DNA of 37,006 nt from an uncultured Pirellulales bacterium (GTDB lineage: Bacteria; Planctomycetota; Phycisphaerae; Sedimentisphaerales; SM23-30): the NCBI GenBank assembly GCA_964578395.1, contig CAZOCV010000001.1, positions 6,738 through 43,743 on the forward strand, given 5' to 3'. A model generated the notes under the pieces. That model did no database searches. It was not told the DNA's origin and saw nothing but the letters and a program-made list of their open reading frames with translations. Shown here in pieces: positions 2,180 to 28,667 of this stretch; position 1 is the stretch's first letter, and each line of letters opens with the position of its first letter. A program made the position numbers and the translations under genes.

Positions 2180-2192
2180 AAATAATATGGTT

Positions 2193-2221: not shown

Positions 2222-2236
2222 ATAAAGGCTTTAATC

Positions 2237-6244: not shown

Positions 6245-7176
6245 CTCAAACCGCCATCAAAACGGCGCCGCCCGCAAAAATCACCGTATTCCCGCCCTAT
6301 TTACAGATTGAAACCGTCGCCCTCTGCAACGCCCGCTGCACCATGTGCACCTCGCGCAACTGCCGACGGGAAACGCGGCTGATGACCGATGAACTTTTTG
6401 CTAAAATCGTCGGCGAACTGGCCCCTCATAGCAACGGCATAAAACGCATCACCATACAGGGCCTGGGAGAGCCTTTACTCGACAAACAACTTGAAACGCG
6501 GATCCGCATGCTCAAAGACGCCGGTGCCGCTTTGGTCGCTTTCGCCACCAACGGTTCTTTAATGAATGCCAAAAGAGCGGCTGCGATACTGGATTGCGGA
6601 GTTGACGAGGTCACTTTTTCCGTGGACGGCATTACCCGGGAAACGTATGAAGGCATACGCATCGGCCTCAAATTTGATGAAGTGATGGCGAATATCGAAC
6701 AATTCGTTCACCTGCGCAACCGGATTAAAGCAAAAACCGTTATCCGTATCCGCTGGACGGCTCAGCAAGCCAACCACGATGAACTGCAGGGATTCAACCG
6801 CTTCTGGAATAAACGCCTTGGCCCCGGAGATACGGCTTACGCCAAAATCATTCACACCTGGGGCAACACCGCCGAATATGACGAGTTGCCTGATAATTAT
6901 GATTTTGAACGGCTTAACCGACAGCCGTGTCCTTCGCTGTGGACGTCGCTTATTATTTTTTCAGACGGACAAATACCCTTATGCTGCAGCGACTTCAACG
7001 CCCGCATCTGCCTGGGCGACGTCAAGCGCCAGACCATCACCGACGTCTGGAACAGCCCGATTTTGGCGCGGATACGGGAAAAACATCTCACCGCCGGCCG
7101 GGGCACCATGGCGATGTGCGCCAACTGCGTCGTCTGGGATGATGAAGCGAAAATCGACGCGCACTCAGATAAATAA
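6241..7176 (+). CDS. radical SAM/SPASM domain protein
   Basis: CNARCTMC (CxxxCxxC) lies at about residue 29, and GLGEPLL is present. The C-terminal Cys-rich block (CPSLW..PLCCSDF..CANC) is typical of SPASM. There is an ATGA overlap with the upstream stop. Confidence 0.85.
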   Translation: MTQTAIKTAPPAKITVFPPYLQIETVALCNARCTMCTSRNCRRETRLMTDELFAKIVGELAPHSNGIKRITIQGLGEPLLDKQLETRIRMLKDAGAALVAFATNGSLMNAKRAAAILDCGVDEVTFSVDGITRETYEGIRIGLKFDEVMANIEQFVHLRNRIKAKTVIRIRWTAQQANHDELQGFNRFWNKRLGPGDTAYAKIIHTWGNTAEYDELPDNYDFERLNRQPCPSLWTSLIIFSDGQIPLCCSDFNARICLGDVKRQTITDVWNSPILARIREKHLTAGRGTMAMCANCVVWDDEAKIDAHSDK

Positions 7177-7191
7177 ATAAACCATCAAAAA

Positions 7192-9276
7192 ATGGATAAC
7201 TCCATGAACATGACTGTTTACCTGGCGGACCTGACCCACACCGGCGTGGGCGTCAACTCCAGTGCATTCCCACTGGGTATCGGCATCGTCGCGGCTTACG
7301 CCCGACAGCATTTCGGCGCCCGGTGGCAAGGAGAATTGTTTAAATTCCCCGATGAACTTAACGAGGGCCTGCGGCGAAAAATGCCCCACGTACTGGGTTT
7401 CAGCAACAACTGCTGTAATTTCAATCTATCTCGCGCCTTCGCGCAATACGTCAAAAAACAGAATCCTCAAACCGTCGTCGTTTTCGGCGGGCCTAATTTC
7501 CCGACCACGCCGCCGGGCCGCGCCGCTTTTCTGCGTGATTGTCCTGAAATCGATTTTTACATCAAATGGGACGGCGAAATCGCTTTTGTTAAACTGCTGG
7601 AATATCTGGCGGCCCGGCATTTTGACGCAGCCGGTTTTAAAAAAGAACGTCTTCTCCCGGAAAATTGCTGTTATCTTGCCGCTGATGACTACCTTGAAGG
7701 CCCTGATCATCGCATCGATGATTTCAGCGCCATCCCCAGCGCTTATACTTCCGGAACACTTGACGCCTTCTTTGGGCGGGGACTCCACCCGCTGGTGGAA
7801 ACCACGCGCGGCTGCCCCTATTCGTGCACCTATTGCAATGACGGCCACGACTTCAAACGATATATCATGAAAAAATCCGCCGCCGCCGTCGCCGCAGAGC
7901 TGGACTACATCGCTCAACGCATCGATCCGGCCGCGGAGTTATGGCTGTGCGATAATAATTTCGGCATGTTCACCGAAGACCTGCACACCAGCGGTGTTAT
8001 CAGCCGTCTGATCAAAACGTACGGCTGGCCGCACGCCCTGCAAACCTCCAACGGCAAAAGCCACCCCGAACGCATTTACGAATCCCGCCGCATTATCAAC
8101 GAGCACCGCGACGGCACGCTGCGTTTCGGCGCTTCGCTGCAAAGCACCGATCCTGAGGTATTACGGCGGATTAAACGCCGCAACCTTCCCGTCAAGGAAT
8201 TACTCAAACTGAATCAATTGCGGCGCGCCGCTCACAACCACCGCACCGCTTTTTTCACCGAACTGATTCTGGCCTTGCCCGGCGACAGTCTGGCGCGGCA
8301 TTATCAGTCACTGCACGACGCCATCGACACGCTGGGCGTAACCAACATCGACATCCACCAGCTAAACCTGCTCCATGGCGCGCCTATGGCCGACGGCGAT
8401 GACCTCCAGCGCTACCAATTTGACGTGCGTTACCGCGTTTTCGTGGGCTGTTTCGGCCTGTACCGTATCGGCGACAACGATATCCCCTGCGCCGAAATCG
8501 ACCGAGTAGTCGTCGGCAATAATACGCTCTCCTTTGAGGATTACCTCGAGTGCCGGGTGATGAACCTGCTGATTAAAATCTTCATTGATTACGATCCTTT
8601 CCGGGAAGTGCTGGGGTTGCTGCGGCATCTGCAACTGAGCATCTTCGACTGGCTGCGGCTGCTGAAAGACGAATTCCTGCCTTGCTCCACGCCGCTGACC
8701 CGGCTGGTCGATAGTTTTCTCCGCGACACGCAAAAACCGCTGTTCCCCGACAAAGCAACCATAAACCGTTTTTTGCAAAATCCCGATCATATTCGCCAGT
8801 ATATCTCCGGCGAACGCGGCGGCAATGAACTGTTAAATCATAAGGCCAGGGCATTCCTGGAGCATCTCGACGCTCTGCATGACATTCTGCACGACAGTGT
8901 AAAAGCATACCTGCAGCGCCGGCAGCGCTTGACGAATGACCTGGCCGACTACCTCGCCCAAGCCGTAGCCTTCAGCCGCCTGACCAAATTCAATCCGTAT
9001 CACCTCGACCAGACCCCGCAGAGTGAATTCACGTTCGATTTCATCGCCGCTCAGCGCGAAGATTTTCAGGTGAATCCCGCCGATATTCGCACCGAACGCA
9101 CGATTTATTGCTTCGTCTATGACGCCGACACGCTGGATTACATTCGGACGCGCATGGCTTGCTGGGGCGGCGAAAATATCGCTCAACTGGGCAAACTCCT
9201 GCAAAAAACCAACCTGCAACTCATTAACCGCCGGCCCGTACCTCTGACCCTCCCTCGCTCCCTGCAACCGGCTTAA
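7192..9276 (+). CDS. B12-binding domain radical SAM protein (class B type)
   Basis: An N-terminal Rossmann-like segment (VLGFSNNCCNF..VVVFGGPNFP) is followed by TTRGCPYSCTYCNDG. The 694-aa product has a long C-terminal extension. Confidence 0.8.
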   Translation: MDNSMNMTVYLADLTHTGVGVNSSAFPLGIGIVAAYARQHFGARWQGELFKFPDELNEGLRRKMPHVLGFSNNCCNFNLSRAFAQYVKKQNPQTVVVFGGPNFPTTPPGRAAFLRDCPEIDFYIKWDGEIAFVKLLEYLAARHFDAAGFKKERLLPENCCYLAADDYLEGPDHRIDDFSAIPSAYTSGTLDAFFGRGLHPLVETTRGCPYSCTYCNDGHDFKRYIMKKSAAAVAAELDYIAQRIDPAAELWLCDNNFGMFTEDLHTSGVISRLIKTYGWPHALQTSNGKSHPERIYESRRIINEHRDGTLRFGASLQSTDPEVLRRIKRRNLPVKELLKLNQLRRAAHNHRTAFFTELILALPGDSLARHYQSLHDAIDTLGVTNIDIHQLNLLHGAPMADGDDLQRYQFDVRYRVFVGCFGLYRIGDNDIPCAEIDRVVVGNNTLSFEDYLECRVMNLLIKIFIDYDPFREVLGLLRHLQLSIFDWLRLLKDEFLPCSTPLTRLVDSFLRDTQKPLFPDKATINRFLQNPDHIRQYISGERGGNELLNHKARAFLEHLDALHDILHDSVKAYLQRRQRLTNDLADYLAQAVAFSRLTKFNPYHLDQTPQSEFTFDFIAAQREDFQVNPADIRTERTIYCFVYDADTLDYIRTRMACWGGENIAQLGKLLQKTNLQLINRRPVPLTLPRSLQPA

Positions 9277-9297
9277 CCTTTCGAGGCCATCGCGTTT

Positions 9298-10494
9298 ATG
9301 TACCGTTATTATGTCGCCGAAAACTTTAATCCCACCTATGCCCGGCTGGAAAAAGCCGACCGGCTTGCTGATTTTATGGCCCAGCGGCTTTTCATGCTTC
9401 AGCATCGCCTGAACCTGCCGCTGCCGATGTGGCGCGATTGTCAGGTACTGGAATTTGGCCCGGCCGCCGGTGAAAACGCTCTCGTGAACGCTTTGCTCGG
9501 CGCCGACGTTCATCTGGTCGAACCGGTGGCGGCCTTTCACGAAAAAATCCGTGATTATTTCGCCACCTGGAGGCAAAACCATCGCCTCAAACAACTTACG
9601 ATTTCCACTTTAAATGAGTTTCAGACCAACGAACAGTTCGCCCTGGTTATCGCGGAGGGCTTCGTTTACACCACCGGCCCGGCCGAACAGTGGACCAAAC
9701 GCCTCGCCTCCTTCTGCGGCGAGCAGGGATTTATCCTGATAAGTTTTCCCGCGGTGTCCGGTTTTCTTATCGAAATGCTGCAAAGCCGCATTTGCCGCCT
9801 GGTCGCGTCACAACGCCGTTTGGATAAAGTTCAGGTTGCTGATTTAATCCTTGGCGCCAAATGGAGGGCTATCCCCCACTCGCGCAGTTTTGAATCATGG
9901 GCCAATGATGTGCTTTTTCACCCCTTTATCCGTTATGAATCGCTGAATCATCCCGATGATATCATCAAATTAATGTATCATATCGGCTTCGACATGTATT
10001 CCTCCTGGCCGCTGCTATCAAGCCCCTACGATGTCACCTGGATTCGCCAGACGCCGTCGCGCGAACAACTCTGCAATAACTATACCCATGCAGCGCTGGC
10101 CCTGCAGCCCAGTCTGCTCCTGGGCCGGCCCGTACCCCTCAAGCCTGATGTCAGTGACGCTTCTCTTATGGCGCTGCATCAGGCTCTCGACCAGGAATTA
10201 CGCTGTTTGGATGCTCTCAACGCGGAGGATGAAACAAGTTTTACGCCTATTGTTACCGCCCATGAGCGCTGTTGTCAGCACCTGGCGGACGTCGTGCTGG
10301 AATACCATCAATCGCCTCTAATGAAAATGATGAACGAAATTAAAATATGCCTTCATCATGCTAAAAATTCTCCGGAAGAACTTTCTCTGTGCTTTCAACC
10401 CGGGCGACTGCTGGGCGATCTCTGGGGCAGCCCGAATTTTTATATGGTGTTTCATCGGGCCATGCCCGTAAAAAAAGCGAAAATTAAACCATGA
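9298..10494 (+). CDS. hypothetical protein, probable class I methyltransferase fold
   Basis: VLEFGPAAGENAL (motif I-like), VHLVEP (acidic loop) and FALVIAEGFV (motif IV-like) occur in the right order. The C-terminal 200 aa are unassigned. Confidence 0.5.
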   Translation: MYRYYVAENFNPTYARLEKADRLADFMAQRLFMLQHRLNLPLPMWRDCQVLEFGPAAGENALVNALLGADVHLVEPVAAFHEKIRDYFATWRQNHRLKQLTISTLNEFQTNEQFALVIAEGFVYTTGPAEQWTKRLASFCGEQGFILISFPAVSGFLIEMLQSRICRLVASQRRLDKVQVADLILGAKWRAIPHSRSFESWANDVLFHPFIRYESLNHPDDIIKLMYHIGFDMYSSWPLLSSPYDVTWIRQTPSREQLCNNYTHAALALQPSLLLGRPVPLKPDVSDASLMALHQALDQELRCLDALNAEDETSFTPIVTAHERCCQHLADVVLEYHQSPLMKMMNEIKICLHHAKNSPEELSLCFQPGRLLGDLWGSPNFYMVFHRAMPVKKAKIKP

Positions 10495-10943
10495 CTCAAA
10501 CCGTATCCCATTATCGTCTCGACCAGCTCCGCGAAGGCCGGGAAGCAGTTTTCGAAGAGGAAATAACGCCGGCGCTGGTGGACGGCTTCGCGGCGCTATC
10601 GGGCGATGTCAGCCCGCTGCACGTCGATGACGCCTTCGCGCGGGAGCGCGGCTTTGGCGGCCGCGTGGCGCACGGGATGATTTTAGGGGCGTTCGTCAGC
10701 CGCCTGGTCGGCGTGCATTTGCCCGGAGCCAACGCCCTGCTGCAATCGGTCAATCTGAAATTTCTCGAACCGGTTTACCTCCATGACCGCCTGCGCATCG
10801 TCGGCCGCGTGGAACAGGTGTCTGAGGCCGCCGGCGCGGTCGTCCTGCAGGTGACCATCACCAACATCCAAAACGATCAGATGGTCGCCAAAGCCAAAGT
10901 GCAGGTAGGTTTTACAAAACCGGCCCGGGGGGAACCGACATGA
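10491..10943 (+). CDS. MaoC-like (R)-hydratase/dehydratase, hot-dog fold
   Basis: The 150-aa product contains SGDVSPLHVDDAFARERGFGGRVAHGM, the MaoC hydratase-2 type motif. There are ATGA overlaps at both ends. Confidence 0.85.
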   Translation: MTQTVSHYRLDQLREGREAVFEEEITPALVDGFAALSGDVSPLHVDDAFARERGFGGRVAHGMILGAFVSRLVGVHLPGANALLQSVNLKFLEPVYLHDRLRIVGRVEQVSEAAGAVVLQVTITNIQNDQMVAKAKVQVGFTKPARGEPT

Positions 10944-12529
10944 TTGATTTTATCATCATCAGCCAATCGGACGTGGTGGATTATGACCAGTACGCCCAAC
11001 TGCCGCTGGACCGGCTGGAGTTGTACCGCGATCTGGTGTTTCCGCGCATGGTGCGCCATGCAGGACGATTCCGGCCGCACCTGGATATGATGCACCTGGC
11101 GCGTTCGCACCCAAATGACGCCGGACTGAATATCTGGAACCTGCCGACATTCGCCGGCATACATCTGGCCGATGTGCTGGCCGCCGATGGCATCAACGTC
11201 GCGGTAATCAATAATATCCGCACCGAATGGACGCGATTTTGCTTTTTGTATGCTCAGTGCTCCACCCCGCCGCTGGTGGGCATTTCCACGACCTTTTATC
11301 TGTCCGCCCGCCCCATTACCCGCATCATCAAAAAACTGCGCACCATCGACCCTGATATGGCCATCGTGCTGGGCGGGGCATTCGTCAATGAACAATGGCG
11401 CAATCACGGCCCGGATGCCTTCAGTAGCCTGATGCTCAAGCATCGCCTTGATTATATTCTCCACGGATTCAACTCCGAAATCGACCTGCGCGATCTGATA
11501 CGAGCGCGCCGCGGACGCGGCCGGCTCGCGGATGTGGCCAATCTTATATATCGTTGTGATGATACAACGGCCGTCACTTCAACGTGCTGGCATGACCCTG
11601 TCCTTAACGACGCCCCGGGACAATGGGACCGGCTGGATTTGCCCTTTATCAACCACACCGTGCAAATGCGAACCTCCAGCGGCTGCCCTTTCGCTTGCGC
11701 CTTTTGCTCTTATCCGCAAACGGCGCAGGGATTTTTCCAGATGGAACCCGGCCGCATTGCCGCTCATTTGCAAAATATTGCACAAATTCCCGGCGTCAAT
11801 CGCATCATTTTTATTGATGATACCTTTAATGTCCCGCCCCGGCGATTTGAGCAATTACTCACGCTGCTGGAACATCATGATTTTACCTGGTTCGCCTTCA
11901 TCCGCGCACAATTCGTGGATGACCGCATCGCCCGGCGCATGTATCAAAGCGGCTGCCGCGGCGTTTATCTCGGCCTGGAATCCGCCAATGATGACGTGCT
12001 GCGCAGCATGAACAAGCTCGCTCGCCGCGATGAATACATCCGCGGCGTCGCGGCCCTGAAAAACGCCGGCATCATCACGCTGGCGGCCTTTATTATCGGC
12101 TTTCCCGGCGAAACGGAAAATAGCCTGCGCGACGATGTGACCTTCATCGAAACCGCCGGCCTGGACTATTACACTCTCAAGGAATTTTATTACATGCCCC
12201 ATACACCCGTGCATCAGCATAGCGCCGACTTTGGCCTCAGCGGCTCCGGCGCGGACTGGTCGCACGCCACGATGGATTCCGCCCGGGCGCGGCAGGCGAA
12301 ACTGGACATGTTCGGCGAAATTAAAAACTGCACCTGGTTCGACGCCGACGCCAATTTATGGGGACTGGCCTATTTGTATGACCAGGGATTTTCGTTTGAG
12401 CAGATTCAGCGCGGCCAGCAAATCATCAATACCATCATCGCCGACCAGATCGCCGGCGACCTGCGCGATCCGCATCCGGCCTTCGACCGGCTTAAGGCTC
12501 TTTTACAACGAGAGACGGTTTCAGTATGA
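10940..12529 (+). CDS. B12-binding domain radical SAM protein (class B type)
   Basis: VGISTTFY..IVLGGAF (B12-binding-like) is followed by MRTSSGCPFACAFCSYP. The product is 529 aa. Confidence 0.8.
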   Translation: MIDFIIISQSDVVDYDQYAQLPLDRLELYRDLVFPRMVRHAGRFRPHLDMMHLARSHPNDAGLNIWNLPTFAGIHLADVLAADGINVAVINNIRTEWTRFCFLYAQCSTPPLVGISTTFYLSARPITRIIKKLRTIDPDMAIVLGGAFVNEQWRNHGPDAFSSLMLKHRLDYILHGFNSEIDLRDLIRARRGRGRLADVANLIYRCDDTTAVTSTCWHDPVLNDAPGQWDRLDLPFINHTVQMRTSSGCPFACAFCSYPQTAQGFFQMEPGRIAAHLQNIAQIPGVNRIIFIDDTFNVPPRRFEQLLTLLEHHDFTWFAFIRAQFVDDRIARRMYQSGCRGVYLGLESANDDVLRSMNKLARRDEYIRGVAALKNAGIITLAAFIIGFPGETENSLRDDVTFIETAGLDYYTLKEFYYMPHTPVHQHSADFGLSGSGADWSHATMDSARARQAKLDMFGEIKNCTWFDADANLWGLAYLYDQGFSFEQIQRGQQIINTIIADQIAGDLRDPHPAFDRLKALLQRETVSV

Positions 12530-14409
12530 ATGCTTCGGACAAAAAAACCGCTCTGGATAAAATCAAACAGCTTATACAGCAGGCTGATTATCAGGAAGCG
12601 TTTCATGCGCTGCTGCATCTTGCTTCGCCTGATGATGATTTCGTTTTGCAGTCGCGTTATGCCGCGCTGTTTGGCAAAATCCCCGCCGACCAATTAAACC
12701 TGCATGAAGTCCGATTGGCGCTGGTCGCCACCAGCACCATCGATCATTTTGCCGGCATTGTGCCTTTCTGGCTGGCGACATTCGGCCTGCGCAGCAAAAT
12801 TTTTCTGGCCCCGCATAACACCCTGCAACAAACCATCCTCGACACAACCAGCGGTCTTTATGCCTTCAAACCCGATGTTACCTTCCTGTTTACCAATCAC
12901 CGCGATGTGCAAATCGATGTGCCGCCGGGAAGCACGGCGGATGAAGCCAACCAGGCGGTCCAACTGGCCGCGGACCTATGGCGCGGTTTATGGAATAATC
13001 TGCTCCATCATAGCGGCGGCCACATTCTTCACAATAACGCCGATATCCCCCACGTCCGCGCGTATGGCAATTACGATGCGGCCATTGCCTGGGGCCGCAG
13101 CCATCTGCTGCAGCGATACAATCTTGAATTGGCTAAAAACCTGTCGGCGGGCGTAACGCTATTCGACCTGGACGCTCTGGCCGCCCGCTTCGGCAAAGAC
13201 CGCTGGTTTGATGAACGCTACTGGCATCATTCTCAACACGCCTTTTCCCTCGACGCATCCGGTCTGGTTGCCCATCAAACCGCCGCCGTCATTGCCGCCA
13301 TCAAGGGCCGGGCCAAAAAGTGCATCGTCCTCGACTTGGACAACACCCTCTGGGGCGGCGTAGTCGGCGATGAGGGCTGGCAAAATCTCCAACTCGGCCA
13401 CGGCGTCAATGGCGAGGCTTATGCCGCGTTTCAAAAATATCTGCTGGAACTTAAAAACCGCGGCATCGTTCTGGCGGTATGCTCCAAAAACGAAGACACC
13501 ATCGCCCGCGAACCCTTCCTGCATCATCCTGAAATGCAACTGCGGCTCGAAGACATCGCCGTTTTCGTCGCCAATTGGAATAATAAAGCGGACAATATTC
13601 GTTATATCGCCCAAACGCTCAACCTTGGCCTCGATGCTCTGGTGTTCCTGGATGATAATCCGGCCGAACGCGAACTCGTCCGCCGCTGCCTGCCTATGGT
13701 CGCCGTCCCCGAATTGGGCGATGATCCCACCCGCTATATCCGCATCCTTGACCATGCCGCCTGTTTTGAAACCATCACCTTTTCCGACGAAGACCGACGA
13801 CGCAGCGATTTCTATCGTGATAATGCCCGTCGCGCGGAACTTCAGCAGCAGTTCAGCGATCTGTCCGGCTATCTGCAAAGCCTGGACATGACGGCGGACG
13901 TCGGCGATTTCGATGAACTGCGCCTGCCCCGTATCGCCCAGCTTATTAATAAAAGTAATCAGTTCCATCTGACCACCACGCGCTATAGCGAAACGCAACT
14001 GCTGATGATGATACAGGACTCCGCCTGGCTGGGGCGGCATTACAGCCTTGCAGATAAATTCGGCCGTCACGGTCTGATTTCGGCGGTCATCCTCCGGCGT
14101 ACCGCCGACAACGCTCTGGACATTGATACCTGGGTAATGAGTTGCCGCGTCCTATCCAAAAGTATGGAGCAATTCGTCGCCAACGATATCATCGCCTGCG
14201 CCCGCCGCCTCGGTTGCCGCCGCCTCATCGGCCGATACCGCCCCACCGCCAAAAACCAACTGGTCGCCGACCTGTATCAGCGTCTGAAATTCACACCCCT
14301 GAGCCAAAATGATGCTGAAACGCTATGGACATTGGACCTCGGCGACGCTAACCTGAACTACGAAACGTTTATCCGCCATTCTCAGTCACTGGCTGAGATA
14401 ACTTTATGA
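12526..14409 (+). CDS. FkbH-like HAD-IIIC family protein with C-terminal GNAT-like region
   Basis: KKCIVLDLDNTLWGGVVGDEG carries the HAD DxDxT motif in the FkbH/HAD-IIIC context. AVCSKNE and VFLDDNPAERE are also present, and the C-terminal block (ISAVILRR..DTWVMSCRVLSKSME) is acyltransferase-like. Confidence 0.85.
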   Translation: MNASDKKTALDKIKQLIQQADYQEAFHALLHLASPDDDFVLQSRYAALFGKIPADQLNLHEVRLALVATSTIDHFAGIVPFWLATFGLRSKIFLAPHNTLQQTILDTTSGLYAFKPDVTFLFTNHRDVQIDVPPGSTADEANQAVQLAADLWRGLWNNLLHHSGGHILHNNADIPHVRAYGNYDAAIAWGRSHLLQRYNLELAKNLSAGVTLFDLDALAARFGKDRWFDERYWHHSQHAFSLDASGLVAHQTAAVIAAIKGRAKKCIVLDLDNTLWGGVVGDEGWQNLQLGHGVNGEAYAAFQKYLLELKNRGIVLAVCSKNEDTIAREPFLHHPEMQLRLEDIAVFVANWNNKADNIRYIAQTLNLGLDALVFLDDNPAERELVRRCLPMVAVPELGDDPTRYIRILDHAACFETITFSDEDRRRSDFYRDNARRAELQQQFSDLSGYLQSLDMTADVGDFDELRLPRIAQLINKSNQFHLTTTRYSETQLLMMIQDSAWLGRHYSLADKFGRHGLISAVILRRTADNALDIDTWVMSCRVLSKSMEQFVANDIIACARRLGCRRLIGRYRPTAKNQLVADLYQRLKFTPLSQNDAETLWTLDLGDANLNYETFIRHSQSLAEITL

Positions 14410-20373: not shown

Positions 20374-22161
20374 TCAAATGCCTCCCGGAGCCATACCCGG
20401 CATCATGCCCGGCATCATGCCCGGCATTCCCGGAGTACCGGGCGCAGCTTTTTCCATTTTTTCCTGATCTCTGATTTGCCTGGTAACGCTGCTATGCAGT
20501 TTTTGCAGGTCTTCGGGCCATGCGGTCTTCTCCACCGGGAGGCGATGAATAATCCCCTGGGCGTCATTATAAACCAGCTCGGTCGTAACTACGTCCTTGA
20601 GATTTCTTCCCATTCGATACCAGTAATGCACTCCGGGAATAACATCAATTACCATGGCGCCGGTGCGGTAATCGATAGGTGTGGCCTGCTGGGTTTCGCC
20701 GGTCATCGGCGCTGCCATAGCCGCTGCGCCCGGCCGGCCGGCGGCCGCACGAACCTCTTCCAATTCACCCACCACGGTCCCCGGTATGGCGCGATAACGC
20801 TGGCTGTGCCAAAGGCCATTTTGCCAGCGATAGACTTCGATGCCCACGGTCTGACCGGCGTCGGCTATGCGCGGCACAAAAAACGTACGTTCAGGAATTT
20901 TTACAGCACCATCCGGACGAATCCAGTCCGTCCAAAGCACCCGCTGCGTCGCCAGTGCCGCCTGATCTTCCTCCACCCAATTGGGATGGCCGGCGACAGG
21001 ATTAAAGAAACCCAAACGAATGCGATAACGATAAATCCCGCCCGAATCCAGCGACGCATCATGCGCCCAGAAGGAAATGGTATCCGCATTGGTAAATTCT
21101 TCCGCTGCATACTTCGACGTGCCGGGAACTCCGCCGCCCATCGTCATCCCGGGCATCATCCCTTCTTCCATCATCCCGGGCATCATTCCCGGCATCATAC
21201 CCGGCATCATTCCGGGCGCCATTCCAGGAGCGGTCGGGCGTGCCGTGGTAGTACGGCGATCGCCCGTTGTCCCGGCGGCCTCTTCGCTCTTGCTGAGCCA
21301 TTCCCCCGTCAACAACCGAAAGGGCTGAGGCTTTAATAATAAAAGCTGCGTATCGGGAGCTCCCCATTCCGTGCGGCGAACCTCGTATGATTCCGGGGTC
21401 AATTGCTCAAGTTGGTCCGGCGTAAGCGCTTTCCCCGCCATCGGATCTACGGGCAAACGCACGGTATCTTCAAACTCACTCCACTCGCCATCGGGCAGCA
21501 AGCGCGAACGCTGCAACTGGACAACCGCCACCGCCGGCGAAGAAACCGTCAGAGGGTCTCTGCTGCCGGAGCCGAACGCCGAATCGAACCGCTGGCGCAA
21601 TTCGCCGATGCGGAAAGACGCCTCAACGGAAACAAAATCAACATCGGAAAGTACTTCCTGCAAATTTCCGGACGTCATCATCCCCATGCCCATCGCGCCC
21701 ATCCCGGCCGTCGCTGTCGCCGTCGTATCGACGGCGACCGGCACATACGCCTGATCCCGCGTCAACTGCAGTTTCACCTCCGCCAGCGCCGGCATATCGG
21801 GAATGCGATATGGACCGCGCATCTCTTCACGCACATCCGTAATATAAGGCGGCGTCAGCGGAACCGCATCGACAACCGTTTTCTCCAGCGGATGAGCTTC
21901 GATAATTTGCTCCGGCACATCCGTATTGACAGGCGCGGGAGGAAGCGGGCCGGTCTGCGCCAGACGACTGACGATCTCTTCGCCCTTCTCGGCTGCTTCG
22001 CTGGTCGCCTCGGAAGCCTTAAGGATTTCATCATTCAGCGGCACTCCGGCGGGACGCAATATCTGGCTATAAACCACCCACAGCAATATGACCAGCGCCA
22101 CCGCCAGTACAATCTTTTCCAAGTGCCCTTCAATAATATTTATGCCTTGTTTCTTCGCCAT
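20374..22161 (-). CDS. single-pass membrane-anchored protein with two (PGMM)n tracts, function unknown
   Basis: The 595-aa product has RBS AGGAT upstream and an N-terminal anchor helix IVLAVALVILLWVVY. (PGMM)n tracts lie mid-protein and at the extreme C-terminus. I recognise no catalytic motif. It is the third gene of the pilMN-headed operon. Confidence 0.8.
   Translation of the reverse strand: MAKKQGINIIEGHLEKIVLAVALVILLWVVYSQILRPAGVPLNDEILKASEATSEAAEKGEEIVSRLAQTGPLPPAPVNTDVPEQIIEAHPLEKTVVDAVPLTPPYITDVREEMRGPYRIPDMPALAEVKLQLTRDQAYVPVAVDTTATATAGMGAMGMGMMTSGNLQEVLSDVDFVSVEASFRIGELRQRFDSAFGSGSRDPLTVSSPAVAVVQLQRSRLLPDGEWSEFEDTVRLPVDPMAGKALTPDQLEQLTPESYEVRRTEWGAPDTQLLLLKPQPFRLLTGEWLSKSEEAAGTTGDRRTTTARPTAPGMAPGMMPGMMPGMMPGMMEEGMMPGMTMGGGVPGTSKYAAEEFTNADTISFWAHDASLDSGGIYRYRIRLGFFNPVAGHPNWVEEDQAALATQRVLWTDWIRPDGAVKIPERTFFVPRIADAGQTVGIEVYRWQNGLWHSQRYRAIPGTVVGELEEVRAAAGRPGAAAMAAPMTGETQQATPIDYRTGAMVIDVIPGVHYWYRMGRNLKDVVTTELVYNDAQGIIHRLPVEKTAWPEDLQKLHSSVTRQIRDQEKMEKAAPGTPGMPGMMPGMMPGMAPGGI
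20386..20442 (-). repeat. 12-nt tandem repeat CATCATnCCnGG (encodes PGMM units), tract A
   Basis: It encodes PGTPGMPGMMPGMMPGMAP at the C-terminus of the 595-aa protein, read codon by codon. Confidence 0.9.
21140..21231 (-). repeat. 12-nt tandem repeat CATCATnCCnGG (encodes PGMM units), tract B
   Basis: It encodes APGMAPGMMPGMMPGMMPGMMEEGMMPGMTM in the middle of the 595-aa protein. Confidence 0.9.
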
Positions 22162-22231
22162 AAGCTTTATCCTGTTTTATTGCACATCAACTTCCGGGAA
22201 TCGCCGCTACGCCTGTTTTTCGCTTTTGCTG

Positions 22232-23566
22232 TTATACCCCTCCCGCCGCGGACGTATCCAAAGGTTTCAAATCCAGTTTAACCGGCTCGGGCATAATACT
22301 TTCATACCCTTTATGAAAAAATACATATTCGCAAATCATGCGCAGTTCGGCCAGCGAGCCTCCGCCATAATAATATCCCGCCGCCTCCTCCTGACGCAGG
22401 TTGATCGGATTGGTGTGAATCAGCAAAACGGTAATCTGGTTGCGCGGCGTATCATCGCTGGTTTTTATGTTTTGAAGAATGTTCACGAAATCAACGATAT
22501 AGGTCGTGTCCATAATCACGGACAATTCAAAATGCACCACGTCGATAAAATCGTCACTGGCGCGGTTGGTCCAGGAACGGGTCATTTGCCCATAATATGT
22601 TTTGGTCGCAGGCGCCGTTGTGCCATCGCCGCTCGTCGCGGCGGCCGCCGCGGTCGGCTCCAGCACATACACGGGCATACGCAGCGCACTATCGGCAACG
22701 CGCCGTCCGACGGTTTCAGCGGTTCCAGCGCTGACGGATGTAGTCGTCGTTTGGCCGCCCAGCGCATCGCCGCCGAAAGAAATTTCCACCAGCCGTTTGA
22801 TCGGCGCATTCACCACCGAGGTCGCGGCGGCATTGCCTTCCAGCAGGGAATCGGCAACATCTTTTTGTATCCAGGCGGCCAACTGCGTGTACCAGGCGCG
22901 GCGGAGCATGGTATCCTTATCGTCCTCATCGCTTTTCTTCCGCATGGAATCCCAATAGCTGTAGCCGAACAGCGACTCCGTGGAGGCATATACCTTGATG
23001 GATTCCGCGCGCTTCTGGCGTAACGCATCCACCAGTTCATCCGCGGGGGTTTTCGCCATGCCTGTCGTTCCAGAATACATGCCATACGTGGGCGCATAAG
23101 CCGCGCCTGTCGCGGCGGCGCCGACCAGACTGCTGGCATAATCCTGACGAACCTTATCCTCTTCCAATTTGGTGGGCTTGTCGCCCGCGCCCATATCCGT
23201 CAGAAGGGCGTTGGCATAATTCACATACGCCTCGGCAAAACGTTCTGTAGAAAGAATCATATCGTATTTGGGTGCGGGAAAATAATCCGACATCAGCAGC
23301 GGCCGGCGCGACACCTTACTGATGGCCGCCAGCATGGCGTCGGCCTTCATGTTCCGTTCCTTCGCCAGCGACTCAAAATATTCAATCTGATTATTATACT
23401 TGAGGTTTTTTTCGAGGTCATAAACGGCCTTGCAGCGCGAGGCAAGATTTTCCATTTCCTTGCGGTTGGCGGCCGATATCCTCATGCCGAAAACGAACAA
23501 TCCGGCCGACAGCAGCACCACCAGAATCGCCGTTATCAGAAACATGTATTTTTTGATGAATTTCAT
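22232..23566 (-). CDS. single-pass membrane-anchored hypothetical protein (second gene of the pilMN-headed operon)
   Basis: The 444-aa product has RBS AAGGTGAG upstream and an N-terminal anchor FLITAILVVLLSAGLFVFG. A coiled-coil-like segment is followed by Ala/Thr-rich linkers. I recognise no motif; a PilO-like role is suggested by position only. Confidence 0.75.
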   Translation of the reverse strand: MKFIKKYMFLITAILVVLLSAGLFVFGMRISAANRKEMENLASRCKAVYDLEKNLKYNNQIEYFESLAKERNMKADAMLAAISKVSRRPLLMSDYFPAPKYDMILSTERFAEAYVNYANALLTDMGAGDKPTKLEEDKVRQDYASSLVGAAATGAAYAPTYGMYSGTTGMAKTPADELVDALRQKRAESIKVYASTESLFGYSYWDSMRKKSDEDDKDTMLRRAWYTQLAAWIQKDVADSLLEGNAAATSVVNAPIKRLVEISFGGDALGGQTTTTSVSAGTAETVGRRVADSALRMPVYVLEPTAAAAATSGDGTTAPATKTYYGQMTRSWTNRASDDFIDVVHFELSVIMDTTYIVDFVNILQNIKTSDDTPRNQITVLLIHTNPINLRQEEAAGYYYGGGSLAELRMICEYVFFHKGYESIMPEPVKLDLKPLDTSAAGGV

Positions 23567-23639
23567 AACTTTCTCACCTTATATTTGCCTGTCGTCAATA
23601 TGTCCGTTACGGACCAAAATCACTCCCGGTCGGCGGCCG

Positions 23640-26171
23640 TTACATCTGGCCGCCGGCAGGATTGGCGGGCGCCGATGACGCTGTATTACTCGCTTTGAGT
23701 TTTAGCTTTAATTTCACGCGGAACCAGTAATCATTGTTGACCAGTTCCGGCTCGCCCTGGGCGTTCCGCACCACTTCACCTTTATCGTTATATTTATACA
23801 TTTTGCTGATCGGTTCATTGGTAAAGGGATCAACCAGAGCCGGCAGCGTTTCCACGGTGGGAGTGGTTGTTGTCGCATATCCCGGCATGGCGCCATATGT
23901 CCTCGGCGTTGTCGCCGCCGGTTTCGGCGCAAGGTTAGGAAGACCTTCCGGCAGTAAAATGGCGCTCAACACCGGCTGATCGGGCGACGCCAGCGTACTG
24001 GTTGCAACCCAGTCTCCCTGGCTGTAATCAATATAAAGTTTTTCGGGAGCTTCTTTTTCGATGCAGATTTCGAAAGGCAATGCGGGATCACCTTCGGCGG
24101 CCGGTTCGGCCGGTGCTGACGGCGCCGGTGACAGAGGAGATGCCGGAAACGTCGGCATACCCGGCGTTAACCCCGGTTTCGCCGCACTCGCTGCCGGCCT
24201 AACTGACGGCGGCCGCTGACCCAGATGGCGCAACCGCTCGAAAAAGCCCCATTGGTCCTGCTGATCCCACCCAACCTGCGGCCCCAGCAAAAACGCGCGA
24301 TAGTCCTGGTGCGGCGTGGTCCCCTCAATTACCACCACAAATCCTGGTTCCGCCGGCTTCGTGGAAAAATCGAATTGGGCGCCCGGCGTCGTTGTCCCCG
24401 GACTCATTCCCGGCGTGGGATATGCTGTCGGTGGCCTGAAGGTCCCCGGCATCATGCCCGGTTCATCCCCCATCATACCCGGCGGCATCATACCCGGCAT
24501 CATACCCGGCATCATACCAGGCATCATCATGCCCGGCATACCCATCATACCGGTCGCCCTGCCGCCCGTGCCTAAATTGCTTCGTCGTTCGGTAGCCGCC
24601 CAGGAAGCAATAATGGTTTCAAACGGCTGATGGATATTATCCGTGTAAATAATTCTGATGCTTTCCAGAAATACCTGCTCGCGCTGGTTGCGCGGCACGG
24701 CAATAACCGTGTCATAATCCCCCGCGGCGTACGCCTGATAAAACGCGGTCAAATCAGGATTGTTATTCTCGTTCGGCACACATTGACGAATCAACTGAAA
24801 CACCTTCGGCACCAGCAAGCGCGGGCCATACAGCGATTTGGGCTTTTGAATCTTGCTGACGGCGGCGGAAATTGCCGCGTTGGCCTGCTGAAATTTGGTG
24901 TTATTGGCCGTAACTCTCTGTTTGGCGCTATCCATTATTTGAAGATTGGCAACGGTCTCCGATGATTTAATATCGGCGCTGTTTTTCATCGCGCTGACCA
25001 GCATGAGCAGAGGACCCGCAATCAGTATCAGGCCCGCGGCGGCGAACCACGGCCGTTTCCGCGCCCACAAACCTTGCCGGGCGACTTCACGCGGCAGAAG
25101 ATTGCTCTGAATCGCGCCCAGCCCCAGTCCCTGCAGCGCCAATCCGTAAACCACGCCGAGATTCGGCAGATTTTCCGTAAATTGCGCCGGCGATAACTCC
25201 GGGCTGACTTGTGCGTTTTCAAAGTTTTCCAAACGCTTGACCGGCAAGGACAGACTTTGCTGGAGAAACTTCAGCAGACCGGGCAGCTTCATGGCGTTTC
25301 CCAGCGCCAAAACTTCGCGGAACTGAACCTCCCGGCTGCCGCTGGAATAAAAACCCAGGGATCGCTGGATTTCGGCCGCCAGATCGGCAAACACCGAACG
25401 CATCGCCTGGAATATCTGCCGGGCGTATTTACTCGTGCTGGCCGTACGCTTCAGAGCCTCCGCCTTGGCGAAACTGAGTTTAAATGCTTTTTGAATCGCC
25501 GAAGTAAAATGCCCGCCGCCAATGGGAATGCTTCTCTGCCACACCCGCTGCCCATCGGCGATAACCAGTTCAGTGTTATCCGAACCGATATCCAGAGCAA
25601 TCACGGCCTGCTTGCCGGCGACTTCCTGCAGCCGCTTATGGTCGTAATTGAGAAAATTATACAAGGCCATAGGCGTCATCTGCACCATTTGCACCGGACA
25701 ACGTGTCTGGTTAAACGGCTCCAGGGCCGTCCGCACCAGATCCCGCTTGACGGCGAAAATCCCCACTTCAATATCAGGGCTGGTTTCCGTCTGGAAAAGC
25801 TGCCAATCCCATTCCACCTCGCTGATTTCAAAAGGAATCTGCTGAATGGCTTCAAAACGTACAATTTCCGGAATGCGTTTCTTTTCCACAGGCGGCAATT
25901 TGATAAATCGCGCAAAACTGCTCTGGCCGGGAACGCTTACAACGACGTTGGTTCCGCGCACCTCGTGCTCTTCCAGAAATCGCCCCAGGGCCGCAGTTAC
26001 CATTTCCGCCCGTTCCGCGGGAGTGACGTCGGATTGCGATAGAATTTTTTCATGTTCGATTACCGCAAAATCAACGACCTCGACGCTATCGGCGGTTCGG
26101 CGCAGCTTGATAGCCTTAAGGTTACAGTTACCGACATTAATGCCCCATGCCATTTTACCGGTCTTTGCCAT
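23640..26171 (-). CDS. pilM: type IV pilus assembly PilM-PilN fusion protein with ~450-aa C-terminal extension containing a (PGMM)n tract
   Basis: The N-terminus is actin-like PilM (WGINVGNCNLKAIKL; VIALDIGSDNTELVIADG..IPIGGGHFT). Then come the PilN-type NLLPRE motif and a TM helix (PWFAAAGLILIAGPLLMLV). A long Pro/Met/Gly-rich region with no recognisable domain follows, ending in KLKLKLK. RBS GAAAGG precedes the start. Confidence 0.8.
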   Translation of the reverse strand: MAKTGKMAWGINVGNCNLKAIKLRRTADSVEVVDFAVIEHEKILSQSDVTPAERAEMVTAALGRFLEEHEVRGTNVVVSVPGQSSFARFIKLPPVEKKRIPEIVRFEAIQQIPFEISEVEWDWQLFQTETSPDIEVGIFAVKRDLVRTALEPFNQTRCPVQMVQMTPMALYNFLNYDHKRLQEVAGKQAVIALDIGSDNTELVIADGQRVWQRSIPIGGGHFTSAIQKAFKLSFAKAEALKRTASTSKYARQIFQAMRSVFADLAAEIQRSLGFYSSGSREVQFREVLALGNAMKLPGLLKFLQQSLSLPVKRLENFENAQVSPELSPAQFTENLPNLGVVYGLALQGLGLGAIQSNLLPREVARQGLWARKRPWFAAAGLILIAGPLLMLVSAMKNSADIKSSETVANLQIMDSAKQRVTANNTKFQQANAAISAAVSKIQKPKSLYGPRLLVPKVFQLIRQCVPNENNNPDLTAFYQAYAAGDYDTVIAVPRNQREQVFLESIRIIYTDNIHQPFETIIASWAATERRSNLGTGGRATGMMGMPGMMMPGMMPGMMPGMMPPGMMGDEPGMMPGTFRPPTAYPTPGMSPGTTTPGAQFDFSTKPAEPGFVVVIEGTTPHQDYRAFLLGPQVGWDQQDQWGFFERLRHLGQRPPSVRPAASAAKPGLTPGMPTFPASPLSPAPSAPAEPAAEGDPALPFEICIEKEAPEKLYIDYSQGDWVATSTLASPDQPVLSAILLPEGLPNLAPKPAATTPRTYGAMPGYATTTTPTVETLPALVDPFTNEPISKMYKYNDKGEVVRNAQGEPELVNNDYWFRVKLKLKLKASNTASSAPANPAGGQM
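24444..24551 (-). repeat. 12-nt tandem repeat CATCATnCCnGG (encodes PGMM units), tract C
   Basis: It encodes GMMGMPGMMMPGMMPGMMPGMMPPGMMGDEPGMMPG inside the PilMN fusion. Confidence 0.9.
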
Positions 26172-26496
26172 GATTTAACCTTTCCGGTTCCTTCAGGTTC
26201 GGGGAAGCTCGCGTTGTCCACTTTTCCGTTGCCCCAAAAATATACTAACGCCTCTTTGCCCAAAATTCCAGTCGAATATCGCTCTTCGCGTATGGGTTTT
26301 ATGCAACTTTTATAAGCCGATGAACGGCCTGGCTCCATAATAACAGGCCTGGCGGACCGCCCAGCAGCAATTTATTACAAGCCATTATATAATAAATGCT
26401 TAAACAAATTGCAATAGGCTACACCTTAGGCCATTTCTATGTCTGGCCAAATATATTAAAACAAGAGGAGATTAACGAAGAAATGCAAAAAAACAA

Positions 26497-26943
26497 TTAT
26501 TGGGGACGCCCCTGAAGACGGCTAATTTCCTGGCGAGCTTGGGATAATGTCAAACCCAGCCCCCGAAGGATTTTTTCCGCGATACAATCGGTCTCGCGCA
26601 GCAAACCCAGCAAAAGAAATTCGGTGCCGACTTTCTTTTGGCGGACCAGTTCGGCCTCTTCGATGGCATTGGCTATCACCTGCTTAAAGTGGGGAGAACC
26701 CGGCAAACGGCCAAAAACCCATGTGTCTTCCGAACTGCTGCGGTTCACCTGCTGAATGGATTCCTTTAATAATTCTAACGTAATGCCTGCATTTTGAAGC
26801 ACTTGCGCACCCAACCCCAAACCGTGCTCCATGATCCCCAGCAGGACATGTTCGGTGCCGACATAGTCCAGATGCGCACGCCGGGCTATTTCATCGGCAA
26901 GTTTGATGACTTCCTTGGCGGTTTCTGATAAATGCTGATACAA
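26497..26943 (-). CDS. stand-alone Clp N-terminal (Clp_N double repeat) domain protein
   Basis: Two Clp_N repeats are present (YVGTEHVLLGIMEHG..AQVLQNAGITLELL and KVGTEFLLLGLLRETD..EKILRGLGLTLSQA). TTG at 26943 has a GGGAGG RBS 5 nt upstream. The track ATG at 27000 would overlap the upstream gene by 28 nt. Confidence 0.8.
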   Translation of the reverse strand: MYQHLSETAKEVIKLADEIARRAHLDYVGTEHVLLGIMEHGLGLGAQVLQNAGITLELLKESIQQVNRSSSEDTWVFGRLPGSPHFKQVIANAIEEAELVRQKKVGTEFLLLGLLRETDCIAEKILRGLGLTLSQARQEISRLQGRPQ

Positions 26944-26972
26944 AATAACCTCCCACCGCCGGTGCAACCTAA

Positions 26973-28667
26973 TCAGGGAGTAATTTTCATCGCCCGGCAA
27001 ATTTCCGTCATTAACTGGTCCACTTTAAACGGTTTATAGAGCACGGCGGACAGCCCTTCCTTGTTAGCGCGAACAATGGAATGATTGGGATCATAGCCAA
27101 AACCGGTCATTAAAATCACCGCCATCTCCTGATCGACATTGCGGGCGGCGGAAAAAATTTCATAACCCGTGGCAAAGGGCAATTTAATGTCGGAAAGCAC
27201 CAGATGGTATTTCTGCCGGGCCAGCAAAGCCAGCGCCTCGCGGCCGTCACGGGCGGTATCTACAACCGCACCATATTTTATCATCACATCCGCAATGGTG
27301 CGACGGATAAACTGTTCATCATCAACGACCAGAACCTTTTTACCCTCCAATACCGCCTTGACCGATGGCTCCACATCGCCGGCCCCGCCCAAAATACCCT
27401 GCCGGGGCGCGGAACGCACGTCCTTGACAATGGTTTTGGCCTCCGTTACATGATCGATAATCTCCTGTAACCGATGCCGCAGATCGTCGTGTCCGATATA
27501 TTCCTCCATCAAAAGCGACACTTCCGTGAGAATCTGGCTCAGCGGTTCATTGATACGCTCGTGGAGATTTTCCGCAGCCTGATCGGTGGTCTTGAATCGC
27601 TCCACCACCAGGAGATTGAGGATATTGAGGGCCAGGGCGATATAACGCCCGAATATTTCCGCCACCTGCCGGTCATCCTCACCGAAAGCCGCTTCATGGT
27701 GGCTTTCCACGTTCATAGTGCCAATAATATGATCGTGCAGACGCAACGGCACCGTCAGGCTGGACCGAGCGCCATCAAGTCCCGATATGTAATGCTCGTC
27801 CGTCTCCGGTTTATTGCAGATATAGCTGCGTCCCGTGGCGGCGACATAACCGGTAATACCGTTATTGTGGATATTGGCGAAAATTTCCGTGCGCTCATCG
27901 CCTTCCAATCCCACACCAAACAGCACTTCCAACTGATTCGTTTTACGGTTGAGCAAACGAATCACAAAATGATCGAAATTAAGCAATTCCCGGGCGTAAC
28001 GAATGATTTTATCCTGCAGCAGGCGAATACGCTGCTCAACATTCATATTGGCCAGCGATTCCGCATCGAGACGAACCAGCTCCCGTCCCGCCTGATCAAT
28101 GGCATTAATGCGCTGCTGCAAGCGCCGGCTGGCGGTCTCCTCCCAGATGACCGTGGCCACCTGGGTCATTTTTCCCTGCACCTCCATCATAGGCGCCACA
28201 ATCATTTCGAAGTATCGGTCGTTGGCGTCATCCACAAAAGAGTAACGCCGGGGACGAACCTGCTGGGGGTCCAGACCGGGTTGGCGCTGAAACAAATCCG
28301 CAAACGTCTCATACCCGTGGCGACTCCGCAGGGCGACTCCCTGACGGACATCCTCGCTGAATTCGGCCATTTTGCGGTTTGCCCAGAGTATGACACCATC
28401 GCCATCCACCAGACAAACGCCTTCGCCGATGGTGTTCAGTATGGCCACCGCCTGCTGGCTGACCACCGCCCGTTCCAGGGGCAGAAAATCGCCCGTCCGA
28501 CAGACTACCAAATCAAAAGGCCCCTCACGAAGCATGTACAAGGCCTGTTCGAGGTTTTCGGCGGTATGCACCTCAAACGCCTCCCCCAGCAAGTTGAGAA
28601 CATCCCCATCAGGAGCATTGGGCCCCTGAAACACTAACGCTTTACGCTGACCGGTTTTACGTTCCAT
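26973..28667 (-). CDS. multidomain signalling protein: degenerate receiver - PAS - GAF - HisKA-like DHp - receiver; no HATPase domain and no output domain
   Basis: The C-terminal REC is KKVLVVDDE..HLVLSDIKLP..AVILMTG..YKPF, with acceptor Asp codon 27189-27191. The GAF-like region is GITGYVAATGRSYI..LTVPLRLHDHIIGTMNVES, and the PAS-like region is AILNTIGEGVCLVDGDGVILWANR. An H-box-like LHERINEPLSQI has its His codon at 27561-27563. The N-terminal REC-like fold has Cys at the acceptor position (FDLVVCR). No N/G1/G2 ATP-binding boxes are present. Confidence 0.8.
   Translation of the reverse strand: MERKTGQRKALVFQGPNAPDGDVLNLLGEAFEVHTAENLEQALYMLREGPFDLVVCRTGDFLPLERAVVSQQAVAILNTIGEGVCLVDGDGVILWANRKMAEFSEDVRQGVALRSRHGYETFADLFQRQPGLDPQQVRPRRYSFVDDANDRYFEMIVAPMMEVQGKMTQVATVIWEETASRRLQQRINAIDQAGRELVRLDAESLANMNVEQRIRLLQDKIIRYARELLNFDHFVIRLLNRKTNQLEVLFGVGLEGDERTEIFANIHNNGITGYVAATGRSYICNKPETDEHYISGLDGARSSLTVPLRLHDHIIGTMNVESHHEAAFGEDDRQVAEIFGRYIALALNILNLLVVERFKTTDQAAENLHERINEPLSQILTEVSLLMEEYIGHDDLRHRLQEIIDHVTEAKTIVKDVRSAPRQGILGGAGDVEPSVKAVLEGKKVLVVDDEQFIRRTIADVMIKYGAVVDTARDGREALALLARQKYHLVLSDIKLPFATGYEIFSAARNVDQEMAVILMTGFGYDPNHSIVRANKEGLSAVLYKPFKVDQLMTEICRAMKITP

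Follow-up and report, generated by a model that had tools for sequence, protein, structure and literature searches.

The 37,006 nucleotide stretch of DNA analysed here (the window; part of contig CAZOCV010000001.1 from an uncultured Pirellulales bacterium) carries on its minus strand three consecutive genes, the first of which encodes a protein related to the PilM and PilN components of type IV pili. The three gene products are referred to here as P1, P2, and P3, and collectively as the triad:

23640..26171, minus strand: P1 gene, 843 amino acids, predicted natural PilM-PilN fusion, periplasmic part enlarged
22232..23566, minus strand: P2 gene, 444 amino acids, predicted bitopic, enlarged PilO/Amuc_1100-like protein
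20374..22161, minus strand: P3 gene, 595 amino acids, predicted bitopic periplasmic protein of a fold family without a known relative

An earlier note on this DNA had described three open reading frames (ORFs) of 843, 444, and 595 residues separated by gaps of 73 nt (P1-P2) and 70 nt (P2-P3), and the ORF list of the window bears this out. A Kyte-Doolittle scan places a single hydrophobic segment in each protein, N-terminal in P2 and P3, confirming the one anchor helix proposed for each of these two. The ribosome binding sites, described as good, are present in the form of Shine-Dalgarno-like sequences 5' of all three starts (GGAAAGG, AAGGTGA, and, for P3, AGGA), however that of P3 is the weakest. 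The sequence motifs on which the initial reading relied (GINVGNCNLKAIKL, IALDIGSDNTELVIADG, IPIGGGHFT, NLLPRE, the PGMM tract, and FRVKLKLKLK) were all found, with the exact sites of the last three in P1 being residues 357–362, 532–582, and 817–826 respectively.

P1 divides into four parts:

25131..26144, minus strand: cytoplasmic actin-fold PilM domain, P1 residues 10–347 (PF11104 and PDB matches)
25086..25103, minus strand: PilN-type N-terminal peptide motif NLLPRE, P1 residues 357–362 (5eou alignment)
24981..25055, minus strand: sole transmembrane helix, P1 residues 373–397 (Kyte-Doolittle scan)
23643..24980, minus strand: periplasmic part, P1 residues 398–843 (conserved blocks and variable low-complexity loops)

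Judged by its sequence, P1 is a natural PilM-PilN fusion, a reading already offered in the earlier note and upheld by two profiles and by an alignment to a PilN peptide. PilM_2 (PF11104), one of the profiles which that note had proposed to search with, covers residues 10–347 (E 5.9e-36, 124.5 bits against a cutoff of 27), and TIGR01175 pilM scores 151.7 bits, over its cutoff of 133. A comparison with PDB sequences pairs P1 with PilM of M. xanthus, T. thermophilus, and P. aeruginosa, with 3jc8 PilM matched at 1.4e-33 and 2ych and 5eox also found. The alignment with 5eou, an engineered P. aeruginosa PilM-PilN(1-12) chimera, reaches P1 residue 360 and places 'IQSNLLP' of P1 on the PilN peptide 'RINLLP' of the chimera, with N357, L359, and P360 of P1 invariant in 44 of 44 family members. 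The best-scoring named family for P1 is NF045709, the Amuc_1101 family PilM-like pilus complex protein, which matches residues 49–453 with 239 bits and thereby spans the transmembrane helix and ~55 residues beyond it. This family is top-scoring for all 44 P1 family members, with a best E of 1.1e-75 compared with 2.5e-51 for pilM.

The periplasmic part of P1 comprises 446 residues, with conserved blocks at GFVVVIEG..WGFF (606–650) and LVDPFT..DYWFRVKLKLKLK (778–826). The Pfam PilN model (PF05137) gives no match to P1 at E<=1, however the same model does detect the PilN domain of a second protein encoded at one related locus (L083, described below). We infer that the periplasmic part represents an expanded PilN-type core. 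The 'KLKLKLK tail', previously listed amongst unrecognised sequence, is kept within a conserved block of the P1 family and so is a conserved, alternating, strand-like motif (an amphipathic DYWFR-K-K-K-K pattern) rather than low-complexity sequence.

More than 4195 homologues of P1 were detected, the best of which are full length, come from Phycisphaerae and Sedimentisphaerales, and are labelled 'type IV pilus assembly protein PilM' in their source databases; an exact look-up of the P1 sequence itself found it not to be on record. Fusion of PilM to PilN is no rarity in this lineage, as seen from the NF045709 match running through the transmembrane helix to residue 453 and from the second, 510-residue PilN-domain protein of L083. 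With GspL, Amuc_1101, and the L083 protein all showing such a fusion, the arrangement is not new in principle. As an observation specific to the window, residue 12 of P1 (26136–26138), within the phosphate-1 motif GINVGN, is Asn, with Asp (GIDIGN) at this position in 41 of 44 relatives and Glu in two; Asn12 may alter how this protein binds nucleotide or Mg.

P1 also matches the Pfam FtsA model (PF14450, E 3.7e-10) and, weakly, TIGR01174 (26.3 bits), as might a membrane-anchored FtsA/PilM-like actin that acts with P2 and P3 as a cell division or morphogenesis factor in the FtsZ- and FtsA-less fission of Phycisphaerae. ftsZ is missing from all planctomycetes and ftsA from most, and how they divide is unexplained (PMC12673574, PMC12283558); the triad is also widespread and lies amid housekeeping genes in the loci examined. 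However, the FtsA match reflects the shared actin subdomain only, with PilM scoring 151.7 against 26.3 bits, and the PilN motif and PilO-like partner are pilus-type features. Furthermore, no dcw (division and cell wall) genes occur in the flanks examined, and the related MUL2 system of Akkermansia was identified via mucin acquisition, not a division defect (PMC12418764; bioRxiv 10.64898/2025.12.30.696933). A role in division is very unlikely.

The second protein is best characterised by its predicted fold. An alignment-based AlphaFold2 model of P2 (predicted local distance difference test score, pLDDT, 87.1; predicted template modelling score, pTM, 0.79) shows an N-terminal transmembrane helix that is prolonged by long helices, together with a helical domain and an alpha/beta core:

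22316..22801, minus strand: alpha/beta core, P2 residues 256–417 (model secondary structure)

Foldseek comparison of this model with the PDB returns the Amuc_1100 crystal structures 6lad, 6laf, and 6kny as top matches (prob 0.94–0.98, E ~6e-3), followed by P. aeruginosa PilO (2rjz and 5uvr; prob 0.97–1.0, E 0.02–0.09) and, third in rank, PilO from the M. xanthus model. Superposition on the PilO core gives an rmsd of 2.8–4.4 Å over 82 columns, and the size and topology of the match indicate that residues 256–417 are probably the part of P2 that corresponds to PilO. The sequence signal is fainter. Of the NCBIfam families, Amuc_1100_fam (NF038287) gains the most matches among P2 members (5 of 63, best E 7e-4), however the P2 of the window is itself not matched by this model. 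Pfam returns no family for P2, PilO (PF04350) included, and a profile search of PDB sequences with P2 gives noise only, with neither Amuc_1100 nor PilO found. Comparison by hhalign of the family profiles with single planctomycete PilN and PilO sequences, an underpowered test, is not significant, the aligned segments being those topologically expected. Amongst the triad's own family profiles, P1 and P2 share only a transmembrane and coiled-coil likeness (prob 24%), and P1 and P3 one short, implausible match. Fold, weak sequence signal, and adjacency to an Amuc_1101-like gene point the same way for P2, which on its model is probably an enlarged PilO-type protein, Amuc_1100-like by fold and weakly so by sequence. 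Amuc_1100 has itself been described as structurally similar to PilO/PilN (bioRxiv 10.64898/2025.12.30.696933). The 64 homologues of P2 detected are all annotated 'hypothetical', carry no Pfam domain, and come from Planctomycetota, Phycisphaerae or Sedimentisphaerales.

P3 and P2 alike bear the label hypothetical in source databases, and both had been taken for proteins without recognisable features, which their confident fold predictions contradict. The AlphaFold2 model of P3 (pLDDT 76.9, pTM 0.67, 285 residues at >=90) shows a transmembrane helix, a mixed alpha/beta domain (~120–300), a C-terminal helix, four disordered stretches, and the following domain:

20527..21105, minus strand: beta-rich C-terminal domain, P3 residues 353–545 (~11 strands, pLDDT >90)

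The most conserved columns of the P3 family lie in this domain (Y377, Y379, R380, N387, and P388). Foldseek with the whole-chain model against the PDB gives immunoglobulin (Ig)-like noise at prob <0.25, and against PDB and BFVD only matches of the Ig, antigen-binding fragment (Fab), and fibronectin type III (FN3) kind, with prob <~0.35 and long, poor superpositions. Pfam and NCBIfam assign no family to 36 P3 members, a profile search of PDB sequences yields noise without PilP, and GspC and HofP of E. coli, used as phmmer queries, give no match to P3. The anchor of P3 is a transmembrane helix, not a lipobox, and the PilP-type identity considered for the third protein finds no PilP or GspC signal. 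Its 37 detected homologues are exclusively from Planctomycetota.

A feature common to the triad is the presence of tracts rich in Gly, Met, and Pro:

24426..24578, minus strand: Gly/Met/Pro-rich (PGMM) tract, P1 residues 532–582 (tract of the same composition in 28 of 44 members)
21115..21246, minus strand: Gly/Met/Pro-rich tract, P3 residues 306–349 (disordered in the model)
20377..20460, minus strand: C-terminal PGMM tail, P3 residues 568–595 (family consensus end PGxMPGMMPGMPGMMPG)

Such tracts occur at ~530–580 in 28 of the 44 P1 members, in 32 of 36 P3 members at ~300–350 and/or as a C-terminal tail, and occasionally in two P2 loops (9 of 63 members). Their sequence drifts among members (PGMM, GMPG, GGMG etc.), with composition and position kept, and they are disordered in the P2 and P3 models. 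We infer that the tracts serve as flexible or elastic spacers. Hsp70 C-termini carry GGMP repeats, and 1ud0, an Hsp70-like chain, is weakly matched in its C-terminal region by the P3 tail (positions 599–643 of the A2 profile; E 0.05), which we read as a compositional resemblance only.

The nearest likeness of the triad is to the MUL2 system of Akkermansia (Amuc_1098-1102), a member, as the triad is, of the Planctomycetes-Verrucomicrobia-Chlamydiae (PVC) superphylum. P1 scores best against the Amuc_1101 model, with the match running through the transmembrane helix, the best folds for P2 are the Amuc_1100 structures, with a few relatives matching Amuc_1100_fam, and both systems have the order PilM-like gene, Amuc_1100-like gene, third gene, the third being compared by position only. 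The first two follow each other as do, by locus-tag number, Amuc_1101 and Amuc_1100 of Akkermansia (PMC5332112, PMC13174399), which adjoin a secretin (PMC5332112) in a locus that also includes a pilin-like gene (PMC13174399). In contrast, neither the window nor the conserved part of any related locus contains the secretin (Amuc_1098) or the archaeal-type pilin-like gene (Amuc_1102). P1 is ~235 residues longer than the 608-position Amuc_1101 model, P2 has 444 residues compared with ~170–200 in the Amuc_1100 crystal chains, and the Gly/Met/Pro-rich tracts are, as far as seen, specific to the triad family. Akkermansia MUL genes for pili and periplasmic complexes are required in mucin acquisition (PMC12418764; bioRxiv 10.64898/2025.12.30.696933).

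With the PilM-PilN-PilO-PilP subcomplex of type IVa pili (P. aeruginosa, M. xanthus, T. thermophilus), the triad shares the PilM actin-fold domain, a PilN INLLP-type motif followed by a transmembrane helix, and a bitopic partner with a core that is probably of the PilO fold. It differs in having PilM and PilN in one polypeptide, in giving no match to the Pfam PilN, PilO, and PilP models, and in periplasmic parts two to three times larger, with low-complexity insertions. PilP is a lipoprotein with a beta-sandwich that binds PilQ, and PilMNOP is normally linked to pilQ, whereas the third protein of the triad is anchored by a transmembrane helix, lacks similarity to PilP, and has no pilQ linked to it. 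The topology of P1, P2, and P3 also mirrors that of GspL, GspM, and GspC of the type II secretion system, in which GspL is a one-chain analogue of PilM and PilN, GspM is PilO-like, and GspC is a third component anchored by a transmembrane helix. However, TIGR01709 gspL is matched by only one of 44 P1 relatives (E 6e-5), E. coli GspL gives a single match at 9.6e-4, GspM and GspC give none, and there are no adjacent gsp genes.

Genes for an ATPase, platform protein, secretin, pilin, or prepilin peptidase were not found in the 37-kb window, as the earlier note had stated. When all window ORFs of >=60 residues are searched by phmmer, with HofB/C/Q, PpdD, and GspC-G, L, M, and O of E. coli as queries, the PilM gene is the sole match, and a prepilin-motif regular expression has no match anywhere in the window.

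With a single genome scanned for each GTDB species, P1 relatives were detected in at least 565 species, the best 80 of which are metagenome-assembled genomes or isolates that bear the names Phycisphaerae, Sedimentisphaerales, Anaerohalosphaeraceae, or generic Planctomycetota. These 80 and three others make up a set of 83 loci, all ORFs of which were searched with hidden Markov models of the three families. Complete P1-P2-P3 triads are present at 71 loci, on one strand and in the same order, the remaining loci being cut by contig ends, and every locus with enough downstream DNA carries P1, then P2, then P3. The triad is thus conserved as a unit in 71 of 71 sufficiently long loci, and the possibility, raised at the outset, that it might not hold together in relatives falls away. 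Searched exhaustively with HMMER, the P2 profile gives 1,994 clusters at 50% identity with E <=1e-3, of which 1,482 are at <=1e-10.

The flanks of the triad vary by lineage, with dnaJ/grpE and thiC in some and a GAF regulator and Clp_N gene in close relatives of the window, and a search with Hof/Gsp references finds pilus or secretion genes in few flanks only. Just two frequent neighbours were identified. Directly upstream of the PilM-N gene, and divergent from it, 61 of the 83 loci have a gene for a MiaB/RimO-type methylthiotransferase (UPF0004 and Radical_SAM; for example L018:8573-9868, minus strand), with the window carrying Clp_N and GAF-regulator genes there instead. At 17 loci a convergent gene for a glycoside hydrolase family 2 (GH2) glycosidase (Glyco_hydro_2_N2, Mannosidase_ig; for example L018:15734-18244, minus strand) lies directly downstream of P3, an adjacency that could signify a link to glycan use, or synteny within one clade.

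The stand-alone PilM-PilN-PilO operon of Helicobacter pylori similarly has no other pilus genes nearby and is also drawn beside miaB (PMC10823254, Fig. 1 legend). Its products provide a precedent for a flagellar motor accessory cage, in which rings of P1 and P2 around the motor would modulate motility, and several Phycisphaeraceae are motile (PMC8882080). However, the H. pylori operon consists of three separate genes encoding distant PilM, PilN, and PilO homologues without a counterpart of P3 (PMC10823254), no sequence relation to the triad is shown beyond the shared families, and the triad proteins are far larger than those of H. pylori. Their closest family is instead that of Akkermansia Amuc_1101, and A. 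muciniphila is described as non-motile (PMC12418764). Additionally, no pilus, secretion, or flagellar gene is found among the frequent annotated clusters of conserved neighbours (the flanks were not searched with flagellar queries), and the miaB adjacency is possibly a coincidence. We regard a flagellar cage as most unlikely.

Type IV filament genes do occur elsewhere in genomes that carry the triad. The readable flank extends 10 kb to either side of each match, and the PilM/N/O-secretin genes seen there are chance sightings. At L083:17486-21403 (minus strand), on the opposite strand to the triad and 2 kb from it, Pfam identifies a separate PilN/PilO/secretin cluster, in which a small protein with a hydrophobic N-terminus comes first and is accompanied by the 510-residue PilN-domain protein, a 197-residue PilO/T2SSM_b protein, and a 447-residue secretin. 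At L075:434-2244 (minus strand), from the cultured Anaerohalosphaeraceae isolate U12dextr, a 325-residue pilM (PF11104) and then a 248-residue PilN-like gene starting 'MATINFVPN' lie 8 kb upstream of the triad, with this second PilM cluster running off the end of the locus. L068 has a secretin and a prepilin-type protein within 10 kb. Secretins within this distance are thus found at L083, at L068, and as a weak match at L005, those of L083 and L068 being in separate clusters. As the standard models detect ordinary planctomycete PilN and PilO, the triad proteins are truly divergent, and the separate PilM/N/O-secretin genes alongside the triad show it to be an additional, paralogous module, not the sole alignment complex.

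These separate, ordinary clusters also suit a pilus-independent trans-periplasmic scaffold, in which PilM/N/O-derived proteins were recruited for another envelope structure, with P3 and the enlarged domains providing a new function and no filament being built. A precedent is the orphan pilMNO operon of the pilus-less H. pylori, which builds the flagellar motor cage (PMC10823254). Further points in favour of such a scaffold are that no type IV filament gene is linked to the triad in 71 loci, the flanks being variable housekeeping genes, and that P3 has a confident fold without a known relative. However, NLLP, the motif of the PilM groove partner, shows the strict conservation seen in functional pilus systems, and dispersed genes are common in type IV pilus systems. 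Furthermore, the nearest named relatives of the triad, Amuc_1101 and Amuc_1100, share their locus with a secretin gene and a pilin-like one (PMC13174399). We consider this scaffold doubtful. A more specific proposal places the triad outside any pilus or secretion machine, as a self-contained, Phycisphaerae-specific cytoplasm-to-periplasm scaffold, driven or organised by the actin fold, with P3 and the Met-rich segments spanning the periplasm, that would act in FtsZ-less division, envelope tethering, or whole-polymer uptake; this appears slightly more doubtful still.

The reading we favour, at a probability of roughly 0.5, is that the triad serves a type IV filament machine of the PVC type as its inner membrane alignment platform, homologous to the Amuc_1101-Amuc_1100-(Amuc_1099) core of MUL2. 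It draws on the presence of P1, P2, and P3 together and in fixed order wherever the sequence suffices (71 loci), and on the secretins and prepilin-type proteins encoded in triad-bearing genomes, and cultured Phycisphaeraceae have been described with fimbriae (PMC8882080, Table 1). The idea of a diverged PVC-type equivalent of PilMNOP, one of the two put forward in the earlier note, thus gains support from P1, with Amuc_1101 the best family in 44 of 44 members, and from P2, with its PilO/Amuc_1100-like fold, but not from P3.

Several observations weigh against this alignment platform. The 239 bits of P1 against NF045709 are far under the equivalog cutoff of 650, which makes P1 related to Amuc_1101 yet places it outside that family, and the Foldseek E-values of P2 are weak, at ~6e-3 at best. 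The PilN-type fold of the periplasmic part of P1 is putative, and no sequence or fold test gives P3 a likeness to PilP or GspC. Furthermore, no gene for a secretin, ATPase, platform protein, pilin, or peptidase is contiguous with the triad in the 71 complete loci, and with the clusters of L083 and L075 having alignment proteins of their own, an obvious client machine for the triad is missing.

In an alignment platform of this kind, the PilM domain of P1 would clamp its own NLLP peptide in cis and present, on the cytoplasmic side, a surface on which an ATPase or platform protein could dock. The periplasmic parts of P1 and P2 would pair in the manner of PilN and PilO, with P3 replacing PilP or GspC as the link towards an outer membrane partner. 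Unlinked genes elsewhere in the genome would encode the ATPase, platform protein, filament subunits, and secretin. The Gly/Met/Pro-rich loops would act as flexible spacers, plausibly tied to the enlarged periplasm reported for planctomycetes (PMC12673574), and by analogy with MUL2 the output may be a surface fibre for polymer attachment or acquisition.

Phycisphaerae are abundant polysaccharide degraders of sediments, digesters, and soils, with a largely uncharted envelope biology: they have fimbriae, lack crateriform structures, and divide in the absence of FtsZ and FtsA. Against this background the triad is a sharply bounded three-gene module, two of the three proteins of which are annotated as 'hypothetical' only. 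Whilst PilM-N fusions and orphan PilMNO operons are already known in kind, new in this family are the unrecognised PilO/Amuc_1100 homologue, a third protein of an unplaced fold family, the conserved Met-rich periplasmic tracts, and the isolation from other pilus genes. The triad ties the well-studied Akkermansia Amuc_1100 and Amuc_1101 to a much larger family of the PVC superphylum, and gives a genetic handle on surface-fibre building or polymer uptake in Phycisphaerae. No published description of the triad was found in full-text literature searches. A role in crateriform structures was also considered and rejected, such structures being reported absent in Phycisphaerae (PMC12673574, PMC8882080).

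Upstream of the triad lies one further feature, read directly from the sequence:

26172..26496, minus strand: A+T-rich spacer, 325 nt, 5' of P1 (presumed promoter region)

A sigma-70 scan flags no promoter in this spacer, which is presumed to be the promoter region of P1, and a promoter and terminator scan gives nothing above shuffled expectation. Beyond it, 5' of P1 on the same strand (26497–28667, minus strand), are genes for a protein with a Clp_N domain only (167 residues) and a PAS-GAF-receiver protein (564 residues), an arrangement common to ~9 close relatives (e.g. L003 and L007) and not to the wider family.

Other neighbours in the window include Porin_O_P, GLUG, Clp_N, a PAS-GAF response regulator, a tyrosine recombinase, and PD40 proteins, in line with the porin, GLUG, and TolB-like genes noted previously. 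These had been offered as an envelope-related context, however the porin, GLUG, and PD40 genes are not kept beside the triad in its relatives and so carry no information on its function. The whole window (1–37006) contains no tRNA genes and no Rfam families at the gathering threshold.

Long ORFs run antisense to the triad genes at 20476–21336, 21077–21328, 24225–24630, and 25209–26042 (all plus strand), some of which read PGIIPGIIPG or HHTRHHTR, mirroring the PGMM-coding repeats; we take these to be artefacts of repeat and codon composition, not genes. At 614–14409 (plus strand), a run of co-oriented ORFs appears by eye to encode radical-SAM and B12-binding radical-SAM proteins, a DegT-type aminotransferase, a methyltransferase, a MaoC-like dehydratase, and an FkbH-like HAD protein, a content which, from this by-eye reading only, suggests a glycan or lipid modification cluster.

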